Origin: a virus
Strand: one strand, 5' to 3'
Virus genome (UHGV): UHGV-1460059
DNA: 41,456 nucleotides
The stretch's first letter is position 1. The number at the start of each line of letters is the position of its first letter. The translations under genes were made by a program, and so were the position numbers. This document shows positions 21,179 to 34,186 of the stretch, one piece after another. Below the pieces are notes generated by a model that was given only the letters and a program-made list of their open reading frames with translations, was not told where the DNA came from and did no database searches.

Positions 21179-21937
21179 TTATTTTGTCACTTTTCTCAAT
21201 TGTGTCTCTGCATATGCTTCTTCCTGCCAGCACTTTGTAACCAGTTTATCAATGACATCTGCATATCCTTTGTACCACTGATAATCCGTCAGATCCGGTA
21301 CCAGCTTCTGGACATGATGCCGCGCCAGTGTGGTTGGTAAACGGCTAAACCGGTTTCCATTGCAACGCCCACAAATCTTATAAACAGGCGTGCCATGAAG
21401 CCGGGTCCTTTTTTCATCCAGGACAATACCTTTACCCTTACACCCTCTGCACGCTGTGCTGACTTCTCCCTTACCATGACAATGCTGACATAGTTCCTTC
21501 ACCCACTCCTCCTTGATAACAGATTCACCGCTTCTGGAGTGTTTCACCACTTCGCGCAATACATTATGAAATCCAGTACCTGCACAATGCTCACAGCGAG
21601 CCTTACTTGCCGCAGACCTGGAATAATCAGCAAAGGCAAAATTCACAAGGTAAGGGATGATCTGTAACCGGGTTTCTTCACTCAATTTATTCAATGTCGG
21701 GTTATCCAGTGCCATCGCGTAATTGAGCAGACCTTCAATCGCAAACTGAGGATCCTGAACACCAACTTTTGCCAGGAATAAGGCAAAACCCAGTGGTGCT
21801 TTCGACTGCACCATCCCCTGCGCAGCCATCACATCCGTAATCGTTAAACCACCAGAGCCTGTCGCCGGTGCGTCATCGCTCAATTTTGGAGATTTTGGGG
21901 AGTAATATTTTGGTAAGGCTTCAAGGTTCATGCTCAT
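21179..21937 (-). CDS. Late-gene antiterminator Q-like protein
   Basis: 252-aa protein with clustered Cys/His zinc motifs (CEHCAGTGF…CQHCHGKGE…CRGCKGKG…CGRCNGN), positioned immediately upstream of a promoter/terminator pair and the lysis genes. Confidence 0.6.
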   Translation of the reverse strand: MSMNLEALPKYYSPKSPKLSDDAPATGSGGLTITDVMAAQGMVQSKAPLGFALFLAKVGVQDPQFAIEGLLNYAMALDNPTLNKLSEETRLQIIPYLVNFAFADYSRSAASKARCEHCAGTGFHNVLREVVKHSRSGESVIKEEWVKELCQHCHGKGEVSTACRGCKGKGIVLDEKRTRLHGTPVYKICGRCNGNRFSRLPTTLARHHVQKLVPDLTDYQWYKGYADVIDKLVTKCWQEEAYAETQLRKVTK

Positions 21938-26574: not shown

Positions 26575-26913
26575 CTATTTCCCTGAATTTACGACGAAAC
26601 TGTTCGAGCGGGCTGAAGCACTCATGCTCATAGCCTTCGCGGAGGTAGATAACCCGTTGTGTTTCCGGCTCCCAACGAATGACTCTGACGGGCACTCCGT
26701 AGTGATCTTTGAACCAGCGGTTAACTTGTCGCAAAGGACTGTCTCCTTCTGCCGGTTGAAATCACCCACAGCCCACTCTGCAAAGCTGTGGGTTACAATT
26801 TCCCTGTCACCTGGTACATTTACTGCATAGCAATACTCCACCTTCGCTTTTCCACCCGGTACAGGAAGCGCAATCAGTTGCGAGCGACGGTAGTGTGTTG
26901 TTAAACTGTTCAT
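26575..26913 (-). CDS. Hypothetical early protein
   Basis: 112-aa ORF whose start has an ATGA overlap with the stop of the upstream gene. Confidence 0.4.
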
Positions 26914-27461
26914 GCGTTAGTTTCTCCACAGTCACGACACGCCACGGCGCCCGGAGCTGCACACTCGCGGGCGTCATTACTTTCTGAAATGCAAAAAATT
27001 TTGTAGACCAGTGCTGCATGCTCCTGCAGCTTCGAAATTGAGAGGTACAGCTCGTCGTTAATTGCTGTCTTCTCATGCGGTTCCACTACACCGTCTTCAA
27101 TTGCTGAACGAATCTGTTTTGAATAACTGCCGATCTGTTCAATGACTTCCAGCAGGCGCTGGTTAATATCGGCGTTGTCCACATCCTCGACGTCAGGAAG
27201 AGACACAAAGACGCCATTTGCAGACTGCGCCACAGCGTCAGCAATGAAGTGAGTTCCACCAGCACGTTGCAAAATCATTGCCCATCCCAGCGGGAAAATC
27301 TGATCGCCATCGGCACGAAGGCGGTTAAATAATGCGTTCTCTGTTACATCCAGCCAGTCAGCAGCTTCAGCGTACCCCCCCGGCAACGCTGCGATAGTTT
27401 TTCTGACAGCTTTCACGTACCACTCAGGCTGTTTTTCTACTTTCCAGTGATGCTTACCCAC
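26910..27461 (-). CDS. CII-like early regulatory protein (tentative)
   Basis: 183-aa ORF immediately downstream of cro, overlapping its stop; Cys-rich C-terminus. Confidence 0.4.
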
Positions 27462-27714
27462 GGTTCACCTCCTGTTCCTGTGGTTTAAACCCATTCTGAT
27501 TTTGGCTAGATTGAAAACGTGCCGGATAAAGAATCTGCATTTCGCTGACTTCACCCTTAAAAAAATTGGCTAAACGTTCTGCAAGCTCGATAGATGGAAT
27601 CTGCTCCAGCCTCTCAATACGACTCAACGTCGCTGGATTGACTTGAACACCCGCAGCAACATGCTGCAAAGTGAAACCATGCGCCTTACGCACATTTCGT
27701 AATGGTGATTGCAT
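27454..27714 (-). CDS. Cro-like HTH (XRE-family) repressor
   Basis: 86-aa HTH protein divergent from cI; GGAGGA 5 nt upstream of the ATG. Confidence 0.6.
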   Translation of the reverse strand: MQSPLRNVRKAHGFTLQHVAAGVQVNPATLSRIERLEQIPSIELAERLANFFKGEVSEMQILYPARFQSSQNQNGFKPQEQEVNRG

Positions 27715-27811: not shown

Positions 27812-28504
27812 ATGAACATAGGAAACCGAGTCAGACAACTTCGCCAAGCGAAGAACATGAAAATCGCCGATCTCGCTGAAGCAATAGGAGTAGATGCGGC
27901 GAACATCTCGCGCTTAGAAACGGGTAAGCAAAAACAATTTACCGAACAAACACTGAGTAATATTGCCAAGAGCTTAGGTGTTGATATTGCTGATCTCTTT
28001 ACCTCTGCCCACAAAAGTAATACTGTATATAAAAACAGTAATAATGAGGATGTTGCGCAGGTGAAGGATGTGTTCCGTATTGAAATGCTGGATATCAGTG
28101 CCAGTGCGGGAAATGGCCTTATCCAGGGCGGTGATGTCATTGATGTGATTCATGCCATCGAATACAGAACTGATAATGCTGTATCAATGTTCGGCGGACG
28201 ACCAGCCAATCACATCAAAGTTATCAACGTTCGTGGGGACAGTATGTGTCCAACCATTGAGCCAGGAGATCTCATCTTCGTTGATGTCAGCATCAATCAG
28301 TTTGATGGTGATGGTATATATGTCTTTGGTTTTGATGACAAAATATACGTTAAAAGACTTCAAATGATTCCTGACAAACTGCTGGTGATTTCTGATAACC
28401 AGATTTACCGTGAATGGGGAATTACTAGCGAAAACGAACACCGATTCATGGTCTTTGGAAAGGTCTTAATCAGTCAGTCGCAAACCCTTAAGAGACATAA
28501 TTAA
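27812..28504 (+). CDS. cI: CI-type repressor (HTH + S24 LexA-like autopeptidase domain)
   Basis: N-terminal XRE-type HTH; C-terminal GDSMCPT (Ser) and VKRL (Lys) peptidase S24 motifs. Confidence 0.85.
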   Translation: MNIGNRVRQLRQAKNMKIADLAEAIGVDAANISRLETGKQKQFTEQTLSNIAKSLGVDIADLFTSAHKSNTVYKNSNNEDVAQVKDVFRIEMLDISASAGNGLIQGGDVIDVIHAIEYRTDNAVSMFGGRPANHIKVINVRGDSMCPTIEPGDLIFVDVSINQFDGDGIYVFGFDDKIYVKRLQMIPDKLLVISDNQIYREWGITSENEHRFMVFGKVLISQSQTLKRHN

Positions 28505-28843: not shown

Positions 28844-29050
28844 ATGCACAAAACAGAACCCAAAATCGTCGCGCCTGGCTACACAGATGAGGAAATTTAT
28901 GAGTGGATGACAAAGAAGCTGGCAGCTATAAACCAGCTTCGTGAAGTGCTGTCTTATCGACAGGAAACAATAGACTCCTTAAAAAAACTGGATCAGGAAA
29001 TCACGGTTTTATCACAGGATGTTACTTTAGATATTGTGCAGACAAATTAG
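28844..29050 (+). CDS. Hypothetical small protein (68 aa), first gene after the OL-like region
   Basis: ATG at 28844 with GAGGAG 7 nt upstream (MHKTEPKIVAPGYTDEEIYEWMTKKL…). 3' end overlaps a convergent gene. Confidence 0.35.
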   Translation: MHKTEPKIVAPGYTDEEIYEWMTKKLAAINQLREVLSYRQETIDSLKKLDQEITVLSQDVTLDIVQTN

Positions 29051-29456
29051 GATCCCATTCATTTTCGTCAAAATCATCAAAGTGATGAATTTGTGATCTC
29101 CAGTCTCGATAATCTAAAAATTTCTGGGCGGTTACGCTTATTTTATCAAGTGTGAGTTCATCCTGAATTGAAAGAAGAAGTTCATCAAATTTCATCTCAT
29201 TAATCTGTTTTGGCATCCAGTGATGCTTCATCAGAATAAGGTGAACCAGAGCCTTTTTCCCATTCAACTGATTATAGGGAGTGCCGAATTTCTTCCGGTG
29301 CTCATGTAAGACAAGGTCCAAAAGAGTAAGTAATGTTGCCCTTGATTCAACTTTGCTTATTTCGACTGATGACACTACCCCACTGATTTCAATGCCCCGA
29401 TACTTTCCAACATTTTCACAGTGGGATTTGTACAGCGTATAGATATTACCGGACAT
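29022..29456 (-). CDS. Hypothetical protein (144 aa), AT-rich, in the immunity region
   Basis: Long ORF in AT-rich DNA with AAGGA-like SD; no recognised motif. Tandem direct repeats lie in its upstream region. Confidence 0.45.
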   Translation of the reverse strand: MSGNIYTLYKSHCENVGKYRGIEISGVVSSVEISKVESRATLLTLLDLVLHEHRKKFGTPYNQLNGKKALVHLILMKHHWMPKQINEMKFDELLLSIQDELTLDKISVTAQKFLDYRDWRSQIHHFDDFDENEWDPNLSAQYLK

Positions 29457-29471
29457 TTCTTTTCCTTTTGC

Positions 29472-29523
29472 GTTGTTGGGGATAACCAGATTAACCGAAT
29501 CCTTGTTGTTGGGGAATAACCAG
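29472..29523. repeat. Tandem direct repeat upstream of the 144-aa gene (candidate regulator binding sites)
   Basis: gttgttggggataaccag (29472-29489) and gttgttggggaataaccag (29505-29523), about 33 bp centre to centre. Confidence 0.5.
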
Positions 29524-29597
29524 GTCCACCTCGCCTGATGTGGCTAAAAGCAGGCACATAACAGCTAAGTATTTTCAACCAGAGAGAATCCTTAGCG

Positions 29598-29876
29598 TTG
29601 TGGTGAATGCGGCTCAGCGCACGCGGGTTAAGGTTGAGGCTGACAGTCGACCTTCTGTGGATACCCACCCGCCTGGTGTGCAACCTTCGCCAGGCACCGG
29701 GAGGCACCCGGCACCACAACTTTATGCTGTGTGTAGTCCTGGCGGTACCAGCTTGTACCCTTGCTTCCGGCTGGTACCGTCCTTTTTACAAAACAGAGAA
29801 GAGCATCACCGGACGACGGGCTCATAACCCAATCCATCCGGGCGGCAGTCACCGCAGGTGTTCTTCTCTGTTTTGT
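29598..29876. other. GC-rich, ORF-poor, hairpin-dense non-coding element (candidate structured RNA or recombination/regulatory site)
   Basis: Perfect 15-bp inverted repeat 29788-29802 / 29862-29876; 9-10-bp IR 29744-29752 / 29770-29778; GCCTGG/CCAGGC 29671-29695; CCGGG/CCCGG 29697-29711; long-range TTGTGGTG/CACCACAA 29598-29605 / 29712-29719. All frames give Arg/Pro/Gly-rich non-protein-like ORFs. Confidence 0.4.
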
Positions 29877-29924
29877 GGAGAAACTAACCGACCTTGCAGG
29901 GTCGATATGATGAGGAGCAGCAAA

Positions 29925-30287
29925 ATGGCTAGCGAACGCAGTACTGATGTGCAGGCATTTATCGGGGAGCTGGACGGCGGCGTATTTGAAACCAAAATCG
30001 GCGCAGTTCTCAGTGAAGTCGCTTCCGGTGTGATGAACACGAAAACCAAAGGTAAGGTCTCGCTCAACCTGGAAATCGAACCGTTTGATGAGAACCGTGT
30101 GAAAATCAAACACAAACTCTCATATGTTCGCCCAACTAACCGCGGGAAAATTTCCGAAGAAGACACCACCGAAACGCCGATGTATGTCAATCGCGGTGGT
30201 CGCCTGACTATTCTGCAGGAAGACCAGGGACAATTACTGACTCTTGCCGGTGAACCTGACGGAAAACTCCGCGCAGCAGGTCGTTAA
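29925..30287 (+). CDS. yfdP: YfdP-like prophage protein
   Basis: ATG at 29925 with GAGGAG 7 nt upstream gives 120 aa. Size and the following gene neighbours match the K-12 CPS-53 yfdP-yfdQ-yfdR block as recalled. Confidence 0.45.
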   Translation: MASERSTDVQAFIGELDGGVFETKIGAVLSEVASGVMNTKTKGKVSLNLEIEPFDENRVKIKHKLSYVRPTNRGKISEEDTTETPMYVNRGGRLTILQEDQGQLLTLAGEPDGKLRAAGR

Positions 30288-30352
30288 TATCGTTCGTAAT
30301 AAACTGATTATTTATCTCATCACTGAATATCTTTATATAGTGAGGACTTATT

Positions 30353-31177
30353 ATGTCTCAGAACTTAGACGCAACCGCAATTAATCAAATCCATGCCCTT
30401 ATTTCTGCTCAGGGTGTTAATGAAATTATCAGTAAGATTGGTGCCGATGCTGTGGCATTGCCTGAGAATTTCCGCATTCATGATCTGGAAAAATTTAATT
30501 TAAATCGCTTCCGTTTCCGTGGTGCACTTTCCACTGCCAGCATCGATGATTTTACCCGTTATTCTAAAGATCTTGCAGATGAAGGCACCCGCTGCTTTAT
30601 CGATGCCGATAATATGCGTGCCGTCAGTGTGCTTAACCTGGGTACTATTGATGAGCCAGGTCACGCAGATAACACTGCCACTCTCAAACTGAAAAAGACA
30701 GCACCGTTCTCTGCTCTGTTGTCTGTTAACGGCGAGCGTAACTCCCAGAAGTCACTGGCAGAATGGATCGAAGACTGGGCCGACTACCTTGTGGGCTTTG
30801 ATGCTAATGGTGACACCATTCAGGCAACAAAAGCGGCTGCGGCGGTCCGTAAAATCACGATTGAAGCAAACCAGACTGCTGATTTTGAAGATAATGACTT
30901 CAGCGGCAAACGCTCCCTGATGGAGTCTGTCGAAGCGAAGACCAAAGACATTATGCCAGTGGCATTTGAGTTTAAATGCGTTCCGTTTGAAGGTCTGAAA
31001 GAACGTCCGTTTAAATTACGCCTCAGCATTATCACTGGCGATCGTCCTGTACTGGTTCTGCGCATTATTCAGCTGGAAGCGGTGCAGGAAGATATGGCTA
31101 ACGAATTTCGTGATCTGCTTGTTGAGAAATTCAAGGACAGCAAAGTAGAAACCTTTATTGGGACTTTCACCGCCTGA
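30353..31177 (+). CDS. yfdQ: YfdQ-like (DUF2303-type) prophage protein
   Basis: 274 aa, the same length as YfdQ, with the conserved neighbour order. Confidence 0.55.
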
Positions 31178-32846: not shown

Positions 32847-33053
32847 ATGCTGAACCTCGATTGTGTTCCTATCTCAACTTATTGCAAAGAAACTGGCGAA
32901 ACTCCTGAAGCAATAAACAAACGTGTACAGCGCGGTGTTTGGCGTGAAGGTGTTCAGGTTTTAAAGGTTGAAGGCGTTAAGGAGAGGTGGATTGATCTTA
33001 GTGAGGTTGCAAAATGGGCCAGACAAAACTGCTCAAACTACCGCGCGGCGTAA
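32847..33053 (+). CDS. Excisionase-like small DNA-binding protein
   Basis: 68-aa basic protein whose 3' end overlaps the int start by 40 nt. ATG at 32847 has GGAG upstream; the alternative start is 32835. Confidence 0.45.
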   Translation: MLNLDCVPISTYCKETGETPEAINKRVQRGVWREGVQVLKVEGVKERWIDLSEVAKWARQNCSNYRAA

Positions 33054-34186
33054 CAATCAGGAAACACCGCCAGGGAGAAACGATCAATATAACTTTCACC
33101 TACAAAGGAGTTAGATGTCGTGAGCCGCTTTCCAATCTGGAAGTAACACCAAAGAACATTAAATACGCCGAGCGTACACTCGGCGAAATCCATAATAAGA
33201 TCGAAAGGGGAACATTCATTTATGCAGAATATTTTCCCCGTTCTGCTCGTTTGAAAATTTTTGGTAATGCTGCTGCAGGCAAAACGGTAAAGATGTACCT
33301 GGACGAATATCTTGAAATCTGCGAAACAAGAAAACTTTCACCCTCTACGATTGGTGGCTATAAAAAATGCCGTAGTGCGTTAGCCTCACTTCACATTTGC
33401 CCTGCAAGTGAATTAACACCAGCAACCCTGAAAGCGTGGATTCAAAATCAGAAAACGACCTTAAAAACAATTCGCAACCAGTTATCTTTCCTGCGGTCAG
33501 CACTTGATGAAGCCGTGACCGATGGGGTACTTCAAATTAACCCCGTATCGTTAGTAACAGCTTCGCGCTACCAAAGTGATAAGTCAGAAGCAGAAAGCAG
33601 CTACGTAGTTGATCCGCTATCACCAGCAGAAGTTGATGCATTACTAGCAGCAGCCGGAAACAAACAATGGGAAAATCTGTTCCGGTTCGCTATACATACA
33701 GGCCTGCGTAGTTCTGAATTATGTGCCCTTCGATGGCGTGATATCGACTTTGTTGGAAAAACTGCCCATGTCCAGAGCGCAAGTGTTGTCGGTGTTATCA
33801 AAGGGACAAAGACAAAAGCAGGTACTCGGAAAGTTGAACTGACAGAAGAGGCAATGTTGGCGCTGATAAATCAGAAGCCATTTACATTCATGAAGGATAC
33901 TACTGTCTTTGAAGATCCAAAGACCAATAAGCCTTGGGCAAGTGCTGATGCAATCAGGAAAAAAGCATGGGTGCCAACATTGCGAAAAGCAGGTATTCGT
34001 TACAGAAATCCATATCAAACTAGGCATACATTCGCCACCCGCCATATCAGCCGGGGAGCAAACCTGTTTTGGCTTGCAGCTCAAATGGGGCATAAAGGGC
34101 CGGAAATGTTATTTCGTCATTATGGTTCATATTTAAAGGAATATGACGGTAATACGACCAGCAATATCACAAAAAAAGCCACTTAA
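33014..34186 (+). CDS. Tyrosine integrase (lambda-type, with arm-binding N-terminal domain)
   Basis: 390 aa; C-terminal catalytic signature including …HTFATRHISRGANLFWLAAQMGHKGPEMLFRHYGSYL… (R, HxxR, Y). Confidence 0.9.
   Translation: MGQTKLLKLPRGVTIRKHRQGETINITFTYKGVRCREPLSNLEVTPKNIKYAERTLGEIHNKIERGTFIYAEYFPRSARLKIFGNAAAGKTVKMYLDEYLEICETRKLSPSTIGGYKKCRSALASLHICPASELTPATLKAWIQNQKTTLKTIRNQLSFLRSALDEAVTDGVLQINPVSLVTASRYQSDKSEAESSYVVDPLSPAEVDALLAAAGNKQWENLFRFAIHTGLRSSELCALRWRDIDFVGKTAHVQSASVVGVIKGTKTKAGTRKVELTEEAMLALINQKPFTFMKDTTVFEDPKTNKPWASADAIRKKAWVPTLRKAGIRYRNPYQTRHTFATRHISRGANLFWLAAQMGHKGPEMLFRHYGSYLKEYDGNTTSNITKKAT

Follow-up and report, generated by a model that had tools for sequence, protein, structure and literature searches.

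Prophages encode several described small RNAs (sRNAs), three of which are close to the element analyzed here. STnc100 (Rfam RF02076) has a copy in enterohaemorrhagic Escherichia coli that was confirmed by Northern blotting, and several of its copies show low ribosome coverage (PMC5331693); the only canonical copy with a described position is placed downstream of the stx2 operon, at a distance of 75 nt. PasD1 and PasD2, prophage sRNAs of enteropathogenic E. coli, are abundant and depend on Hfq for their stability, and were seen by Northern blotting and RIL-seq (sequencing of interacting RNAs after their ligation; PMC8550237). PasD is reportedly a structural homologue of STnc100, with a Q antiterminator (PF03589) and lpxR nearby (bioRxiv 10.64898/2026.05.13.724894). 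The third, sRNA-17 of E. coli K1 RS218, is a 193-nt RNA from an mEp460-type prophage that was mapped by 5′/3′ rapid amplification of cDNA ends and Northern blotting and described as having "no Rfam homologue" (PMC7719688). Here, we analyzed a 41,456-nt stretch of the viral genome UHGV-1460059 (hereafter, the window), in which a GC-rich, non-coding locus on the plus strand (29597–29876) comprises three conserved RNA features: a compact module (S), an intrinsic terminator and a second module (H). The S element is a divergent variant of this known prophage sRNA family, and the locus is probably a transcribed leader giving an STnc100-type RNA ended by a terminator that also gates the early-left operon.

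At gathering thresholds, Rfam gave no match in the whole window. A permissive scan of positions 29300–30100 (801 nt) identified STnc100 at 29567–29790, on the plus strand only, with model positions 1–206 aligned (42.4 bits, E = 9.8e-8); matches to other models, including riboswitch and ribozyme classes, were at chance level only. The alignment spans the full-length architecture of the family, namely the closing helix, the AAU junction (UGGUGAAU), the hairpins HP1, P3 and P4, the CACCGGGAGGCACCCGGCACCA block and the 3′ terminator region, and the invariant STnc100 block CACCGGGAGGCACCCGGCACC is present in the window. Like STnc100, the element is prophage-borne and co-stranded with its operon. 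It differs in the sequence of HP1 (GCGGC/GC-A-CGC in place of CCCCC/GG-N-GGG), in having an additional helix, P2, and in its slot, an early-left leader. The likeness to PasD rests on the published relation between PasD and STnc100, and PasD does not lie upstream of yfdP. Searching the literature for the conserved sequences as text strings returned nothing relevant.

We then placed sRNA-17 through its published full-length primers. It spans CGTTGTGGTGAATGCGCAGG to GGCTGGTACCGCTCTTTT, its 5′ end being the first base before the closing helix of a second scaffold type, type A, and consists of an S element plus a terminator nearly identical to that of the window, in the immunity-side slot upstream of yfdP in a prophage of the mEp460/SfV type. 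The counterpart in the window would be a 192-nt RNA (29596–29787). Only the terminator and the first 15 nt (GTTGTGGTGAATGCG) are common to the two; the interior of sRNA-17 is of type A (GCGCA-GGCUGA-UGCGC ... GCCGG-AGAUCAGCA-CCGGC), a type that goes undetected by Rfam. Because the upstream promoter regions also differ, the ArcA control of sRNA-17 is not transferable to the window. Among the candidates named in a preliminary description of the sequence, a phage sRNA is thus the best-supported label, given the full-length, sub-threshold STnc100 match and a mapped positional counterpart.

Folding, covariation and the STnc100 match all support a structured RNA on the plus strand, as that description had proposed (Table 1). 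Compared with dinucleotide-shuffled controls, the z-score of 29595–29722 was −2.72 on the plus strand versus −1.54 on the minus strand, and that of 29567–29790 was −2.52 versus −1.31; over these intervals the plus strand is more stable than its shuffled controls and the minus strand is not. In the minimum-free-energy fold, which reproduces the STnc100 helices, the closing helix P1 is followed by the AAU junction. Consensus folding of 11 members of the window's subtype with RNAalifold recovered P1, HP1, P2 and P4, with the third pair of P2 being AU in four sequences, GC in three and CG in one. Relatives of the window's scaffold type (type B) were collected by exact-motif scans of viral contigs and reduced to 35 non-redundant sequences. 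Covariation of the pseudoknot, P1 and P3 was measured by scripts with permutation controls instead of a covariance model, because inserts of variable length kept MAFFT from giving reliable seeds. The P3 loop is complementary to the segment that follows HP1, which defines an H-type pseudoknot; this complementarity averaged 6.69 nt over the 35 members versus 4.93 ± 0.18 with permuted partners (500 permutations, none above 5.43). The different sequence pairs that covary number more than 12 and include AAGGUUG/CAACCUU in the window, AGACUGACA/UGUCAGUCU, GAACUGGCA/UGCCAGUUC, UGGUUAA/UUAACCA, ACUGGAUA/UAUCCAGU and CCAGAC/GUCUGG. The outer pairs of P1 in type B alternate among U-A, C-G, A-U and U.G, and its paired fraction was 0.715 versus 0.589 ± 0.023 with permuted partners. 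HP1 keeps its plan of 2 bp, a bulge and 3 bp with other sequences (CCCCC/GG-N-GGG, CCUUUC/GAAAGG) and has the loop motif UNNGCG across the family, while the arms of P3 are wholly different among subfamilies with their complementarity kept. The STnc100 family, filed as a simple sRNA, thus carries a covariation-supported pseudoknot that its Rfam consensus structure lacks.

These data also bear on whether the locus acts as DNA. A protein-binding site, which the preliminary description had allowed for, or a recombination hotspot would suit the way in which conserved blocks border variable inserts and mark the junctions of mosaic modules, S of subtype A or B being joined to a near-identical terminator–H–yfdP module. 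However, the U.G pairs in P1 variants, P3 and H fit a plus-strand RNA only: the variation is compatible with G.U and not with A.C, and is therefore strand-specific, and a covarying pseudoknot would be meaningless in duplex DNA. We regard a DNA-level element as extremely improbable.

Separated from S by a 20-nt linker, the intrinsic terminator folds with −23 kcal/mol (z = −4.39, dinucleotide shuffles), and the repeat finder located a perfect 10-bp hairpin within its stem (29743–52/29770–79). The terminator stem of the STnc100 model aligns here via a different pairing that partly overlaps the 13-bp stem. In mEp460 a near-identical terminator, with a few substitutions, provides the 3′ end that was mapped for sRNA-17. 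An antiterminator pairing between CGCCAGG in the 3′ arm of P3 and CCUGGCG in the 5′ arm of the terminator was considered and rejected, as it is not conserved in ST64B.

The H module gave a z-score of −8.26 on the plus strand versus −6.88 on the minus strand (29788–29876). Seven of its 34 predicted or consensus pairs show compensatory double changes among nine diverse homologues, and the pairs include several of the U.G kind, which the opposite strand would render as A.C. The apical motif ACGGGNUCAUAWCCCAAUC was found in more than 120 viral contigs. In yfdP-type contexts, H always lies directly 3′ of the terminator U-tract and is followed by GGAGAAAC, a small UGCAG-loop hairpin and the ribosome-binding site (RBS) of the first gene; in phage P1, it lies directly 5′ of each of three tandem S scaffolds. 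The preliminary description had treated the locus as one unit that an 8-bp pairing could close. The long-range helix is real and comprises nine perfect base pairs (P1), but it encloses the first module only and not the whole 280 bp; instead, two independent conserved modules, the first with a pseudoknot, are split by the terminator. The perfect 15-bp inverted repeat noted earlier around 59 nt (29788–29802/29862–29876) was recovered by the repeat finder and belongs to a pair of 25-nt arms, 84% complementary, that form a 20-bp stem when folded. Shuffled-control folding, an Rfam search and a look for compensatory changes had been suggested as checks; all three bore out a structured RNA, with compensatory changes in P1, HP1, P3, the pseudoknot and H.

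Table 1. Features of the S–terminator–H locus and of its surroundings in the window
Feature	Position	Strand	Details
Upstream hairpin	29564–29596	+	GCUAAG 29564–69 / CUUAGC 29591–96; abuts closing helix P1
Weak −10-like hexamer	29584–89	+	GAGAAT; spaced for a start at C29596; putative promoter
S module, STnc100/PasD-type RNA core	29597–29720	+	Closed by P1; Rfam RF02076 match; fold z −2.72
P1, closing helix	29597–29605 / 29712–29720	+	9 bp, perfect pairing; covaries in type B and type A
HP1	29609–29624	+	GCGGC / GC-A-CGC, bulged A29621, loop UCAGC
P2	29625–28 / 29667–70	+	GGGU / ACCC; encloses the pseudoknot 5′ strand and the interior
Pseudoknot	29630–29636 / 29681–29687	+	AAGGUUG / CAACCUU in the P3 loop; covariation
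Poorly conserved interior	29637–29666	+	Least conserved part versus ST64B
P3 hairpin	29671–29695	+	GCCUGGUG / CGCCAGGC, one U.G pair; loop UGCAACCUU carries the pseudoknot 3′ strand
P4 hairpin	29697–29711	+	CCGGG-AGGCA-CCCGG; most conserved block of the family
Intrinsic terminator	29741–29787	+	13-bp stem 29741–53 / 29769–81, 15-nt loop, then CUUUUU
H module, three-way junction	29788–29876	+	Long stem 29788–29807 / 29857–29876, arms A and B
H arm A	29809–29841	+	Apical motif ACGGGCUCAUAACCCAAUC
H arm B	29842–29855	+	From the fold
Post-H segment	29877–29927	+	GGAGAAAC, small hairpin, RBS, yfdP start
Small hairpin	29889–29904	+	Loop UGCA; UUGCAG with closing pair
yfdP RBS and start	29912–17; 29925	+	GAGGAG; ATG; RefSeq puts yfdP at the equivalent position
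yfdP-like gene	start 29925	+	phrog_204 match
yfdQ (DUF2303), yfdR (HD), further genes	3′ of yfdP	+	
Integrase	33014–34183	+	
Divergent accessory gene	29025–29456	−	144 aa; phrog_5286 match; function unassigned
cI-type repressor	27812–28501	+	
cro	27457–27714	−	
Q-type antiterminator	21182–21937	−	PF03589; on the other arm

We next considered whether the locus is a degraded coding sequence. Its GC content, 0.56–0.62 over 29550–29800, stands out against 0.34–0.43 at 29000–29450 and 0.35–0.39 at 30250–30450 in the composition profile, as the preliminary description had stated. The further claim that no protein-like open reading frame (ORF) is present holds in part: mechanical ORFs of 95, 114, 161 and 226 aa do overlap the locus, but those tested gave no match (the 95-aa and 161-aa ORFs in Pfam, the 95-aa ORF also in PHROG). 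In RefSeq, PGAP labels the equivalent stretch a "frameshifted hypothetical protein" pseudogene (L305, 2561–2871, equal to window positions 29600–29910), and hypothetical proteins are called over the locus in several phage records. Such a remnant had been named as the outcome that would overturn the RNA reading, and we find it exceedingly unlikely. Substitutions in the helices are compensatory, indels among homologues include ones of 1 nt and 20 nt and are not multiples of three, the same core is combined with unrelated interiors of very different length, and homologous loci give discrete non-coding RNAs. Of 5426 complete E. coli genomes, 2781, or about half, contain a match to the stretch, and in 1823 the match has a coverage of at least 80%. 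The pseudogene label in RefSeq arises because the window variant falls just under the Rfam threshold.

The locus forms the untranslated head of the cI-side (leftward) operon yfdP–yfdQ–yfdR...int, in agreement with its earlier placement in the leader of a plus-strand early operon. SfV, ST64B and mEp460 have the same gene order. Identity of the element is 97–99% in SfV-type phages and 77% in ST64B, whereas mEp460 and Stx2c phages, which carry the other S subtype, share with the window no more than the terminator, H and the start of yfdP. The K-12 prophage CPS-53 has lost S, the terminator and H, and similarity starts at the yfdP RBS (L004, 5248–5604, the yfdO–yfdP intergenic region).

This position, downstream of the immunity region, heads an N-less early operon, has a terminator immediately after it and is where a put-like or nut-like processive antitermination site might be expected; a put-like RNA had been put forward. 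The put RNA of HK022 is likewise a cis-encoded RNA heading the early operons of an N-less lambdoid phage. It is, however, a 73-nt, V-shaped pair of stem-loops (PMC9378689) with a triplex, without sequence or architectural similarity to S, a 124-nt multi-helix pseudoknot. Moreover, neither the S nor the H motif occurs in the examined 24.0–40.7 kb of HK022. As for nut, no boxA or boxB was seen by eye upstream in the window (29400–29600 for boxA; no pattern search was made), and the first gene is yfdP-like and not N. By contrast, boxA, boxB and an N-type protein are all present in three other S-bearing phages, L367 (Providencia), L382 (Edwardsiella) and L413; S coexists there with a complete nutL and so does not replace it. 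A put or nut site in the strict sense is accordingly very unlikely. The readings of the locus as a coding remnant, as a put or nut site and as a DNA site are each contradicted by direct tests. A retron RNA had been judged less likely from the outset, and no reverse transcriptase was found among the neighboring genes scanned.

Thus, we favor a leader that produces a terminated STnc100-type RNA. Transcription would start just upstream of S, at a putative promoter in the upstream hairpin, and would first yield the compact, pseudoknotted RNA of the STnc100/PasD family, after which polymerase would meet the strong terminator. In a lysogen, most transcripts would stop there, leaving a discrete, stable RNA of ~190–220 nt that may act in trans by Hfq-dependent base-pairing. 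The terminator would also hold down expression of the genes downstream of it, among them those at the operon's recombination-directionality and integrase end. Read-through RNA would carry H and the small hairpin directly before the yfdP RBS, where they may serve as a processing or stability element. In an sRNA-17::Cm mutant, yfdP rose 95-fold (PMC7719688), which fits a gate before the operon. Phages of the SfV, ST64B and mEp460 types have no N gene, and this leader, composed of structured RNA, terminator and hairpin, is the obvious decision point for expression of the early-left genes, including excision functions.

Several observations weigh against this model. The STnc100 score lies below the gathering threshold of 47 bits. 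A consensus scan gave no plus-strand promoter near the element and no sigma-70-like promoter upstream of it, and the cI/cro operator word TCACGCAAT is not repeated there. Expression of the window variant is a prediction from homologous loci, and the RNA mapped in the yfdP slot, sRNA-17, is, judging by its sequence, a positional and not a sequence orthologue (type A). Since the terminator was left in place in the sRNA-17::Cm mutant, the 95-fold rise of yfdP may equally well reflect polar read-through from the resistance cassette. Finally, no terminator follows the homologous scaffolds of N leaders and of phage P1, which means that an sRNA gene plus terminator cannot be all that the family does.

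These scaffolds belong to type A, which has the organization P1 - AAU - GCGCA-GGCUGA-UGCGC - variable insert - GCCGG-AGAUCAGCA-CCGGC - P1′ and ranges from 69 to more than 250 nt. Even at E 0.1, Rfam gave no match to it in mEp460, HK620, P1 or PMG1. Its 30-nt 5′ block matches 242 phage records, phages P1 and HK620 among them, with hosts including Klebsiella, Escherichia, Pseudomonas, Burkholderia, Aeromonas, Erwinia and Yersinia. The exact 22-mer GTGAATGCGCAGGCTGATGCGC occurs in genomes of 115 species of alpha-, beta- and gamma-Proteobacteria, so that a scaffold without an Rfam model keeps the same 22-nt core over a range that extends from Pelagibacterium through Pseudomonas to E. coli phages. 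Across these species the P1 helix of type A covaries extensively (GAGGGUG/CACCCUC, GCAGGUG/CACCUGC, GAGAGUG/CACUCUC), and the HP1 loop GGCUGA is invariant in ~150 of 155 variants, although it was left free in the search; this loop and the AUCAGC of the P4 loop are complementary.

Type A is found in consistent settings. In L367, L382 and L413, S lies exactly between pL–boxA–boxB and the N-type antiterminator gene. Alignment of these leaders with the lambda pL–nutL–N leader revealed common flanks, TTTGGG...CACCAAAG, which places S in the slot of the lambda N-leader hairpin. That hairpin, between nutL and N, is an RNase III site, reportedly from the work of Kameyama et al. 1991 and Wilson et al. 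2002. Position and stem flanks are thus common, whereas the lambda interior has no S core and the window phage has neither an N gene nor nutL. In HK620, S lies between pR′/qut and the late terminator. Such short pR′ leaders give lambda 6S RNA and StxS, constitutive, terminated transcripts that accumulate in lysogens; the window leader, in contrast, belongs to the early-left operon. In phage P1, the scaffold lies in the C1-controlled ban operon beside tRNAs, with three tandem units of H hairpin and S scaffold between tRNA-Thr and tciA (L126, 2190–2890, plus strand). The annotated P1 coding sequences plp and upl, on the opposite strand over these units, are probably spurious.

This distribution raises the possibility, the main rival of the account above, which we consider real but doubtful, that the primary job of the S core is to act in cis on the phage operon leader, the lysogen RNAs being by-products of constitutive, terminated transcription. 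Processing, protection from Rho or RNases, control of first-gene translation or an effect on the elongating polymerase are conceivable routes, held with the same doubt. Scaffolds are always co-directional in operon leaders; they occupy the lambda N-leader-hairpin place in L367, L382 and L413, the pR′/qut leader in HK620 and, in P1, a C1-controlled operon without terminators of their own. Among diverse proteobacterial loci, 18 have a cI-like repressor gene upstream, and it is co-stranded in 16 of these. Identity of the 22-mer in 115 species and the invariant GGCUGA suit a universal host partner better than pairing seeds, and the hypervariable interior (~10–250 nt), as the least conserved part, argues against a seed there. 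Furthermore, a boxA-like YGCUCUY ends exactly 3 nt before P1 of type A in 20 of 108 genome loci versus 0–3 in control windows. That string, however, is mostly base-paired, usually as the 3′ strand of a preceding hairpin, and the upstream sequence of the window has no YGCUCUY. The mechanism is itself hypothetical, and PasD engages many mRNAs on Hfq (PMC8550237). In the window, moreover, a terminator separates S from the first gene, so that a pure cis role would have to act on termination or read-through.

A leader giving a terminated sRNA remains our preferred account of the window, but at the level of the family we tentatively suggest, while rating it somewhat below an even chance, that STnc100, PasD, sRNA-17 and the window element form one unrecognized, pan-proteobacterial class of phage RNA that acts in cis in main operon leaders via a universal host partner, its lysogen sRNAs being secondary. 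The strongly conserved tertiary core of this class may combine a closing helix and the AAU junction with a pair of conserved hairpins, which either kiss or flank a pseudoknot. Inserts of ~10–250 nt, some of them tRNA-like, may be accepted at an expansion site, and the slots may comprise the nutL–N leader, N-less early-left leaders such as that of the window, late pR′ leaders and the ban operon of P1. The partner would probably be RNA polymerase with Nus factors, RNase P or RNase III; RNase III cleavage of S or H is hypothetical. What merits further work is the wider superfamily with its connection to the slot of the lambda N leader, and the sister scaffold in that slot poses a testable question, namely which conserved host component the core recognizes.

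Some further observations concern the type-A scaffold and the surroundings of the locus. In L333 (Halomonas olivaria) and L411, the 22-mer GTGAATGCGCAGGCTGATGCGC lies inside a CRISPR spacer with repeats on both sides, which indicates that hosts target this invariant phage sequence. Type-A inserts in L326 and L082 hold tRNA-like D-arm and T-arm sequence. The idea of a tRNA mimic was rejected: ARAGORN called no tRNA in the scaffolds scanned, which include that of L082 and not that of L326, and the T-loop consensus is not matched. A likeness of the type-A motif to helix 23 of 16S rRNA was judged coincidental, by judgement only.

Elsewhere in the window, the late leader downstream of Q (~21180–21050, minus strand) has a good late promoter, TTGCAT-17-TAAGAT, and a strong terminator, AACCCGCCACTGAGCGGGTTTTTT; no S element lies in this short leader. 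No duplicate of the late promoter/Q-binding region was found upstream of S, the sole match being a 15-nt RBS-like identity. A C4 antisense RNA and isrK score above Rfam thresholds in the early-right operons of SfV, ST64B and mEp460 (L001, 1212–1400; L002, 1409–1597; L003, 323–511; all minus strand). The window has neither, which indicates that its right arm is a different module. A 15-nt identity, TGTGGAGAAACTAAC, links 29874–29888 on the plus strand to 26916–26930 on the minus strand, where it forms the RBS region of an ORF (26575–26913), and may represent a common translation-initiation cassette or a recombination scar. A direct repeat, TTGTTGGGGAWAACCAG, occurs at 29471–29488 and 29505–29523, in the interval that separates S from the divergent 144-aa gene; on the minus strand it reads GGTTAT/GGTTAA, GTTA half-sites that resemble the ArcA boxes reported upstream of sRNA-17, and a regulator of one or both divergent promoters may bind to it.

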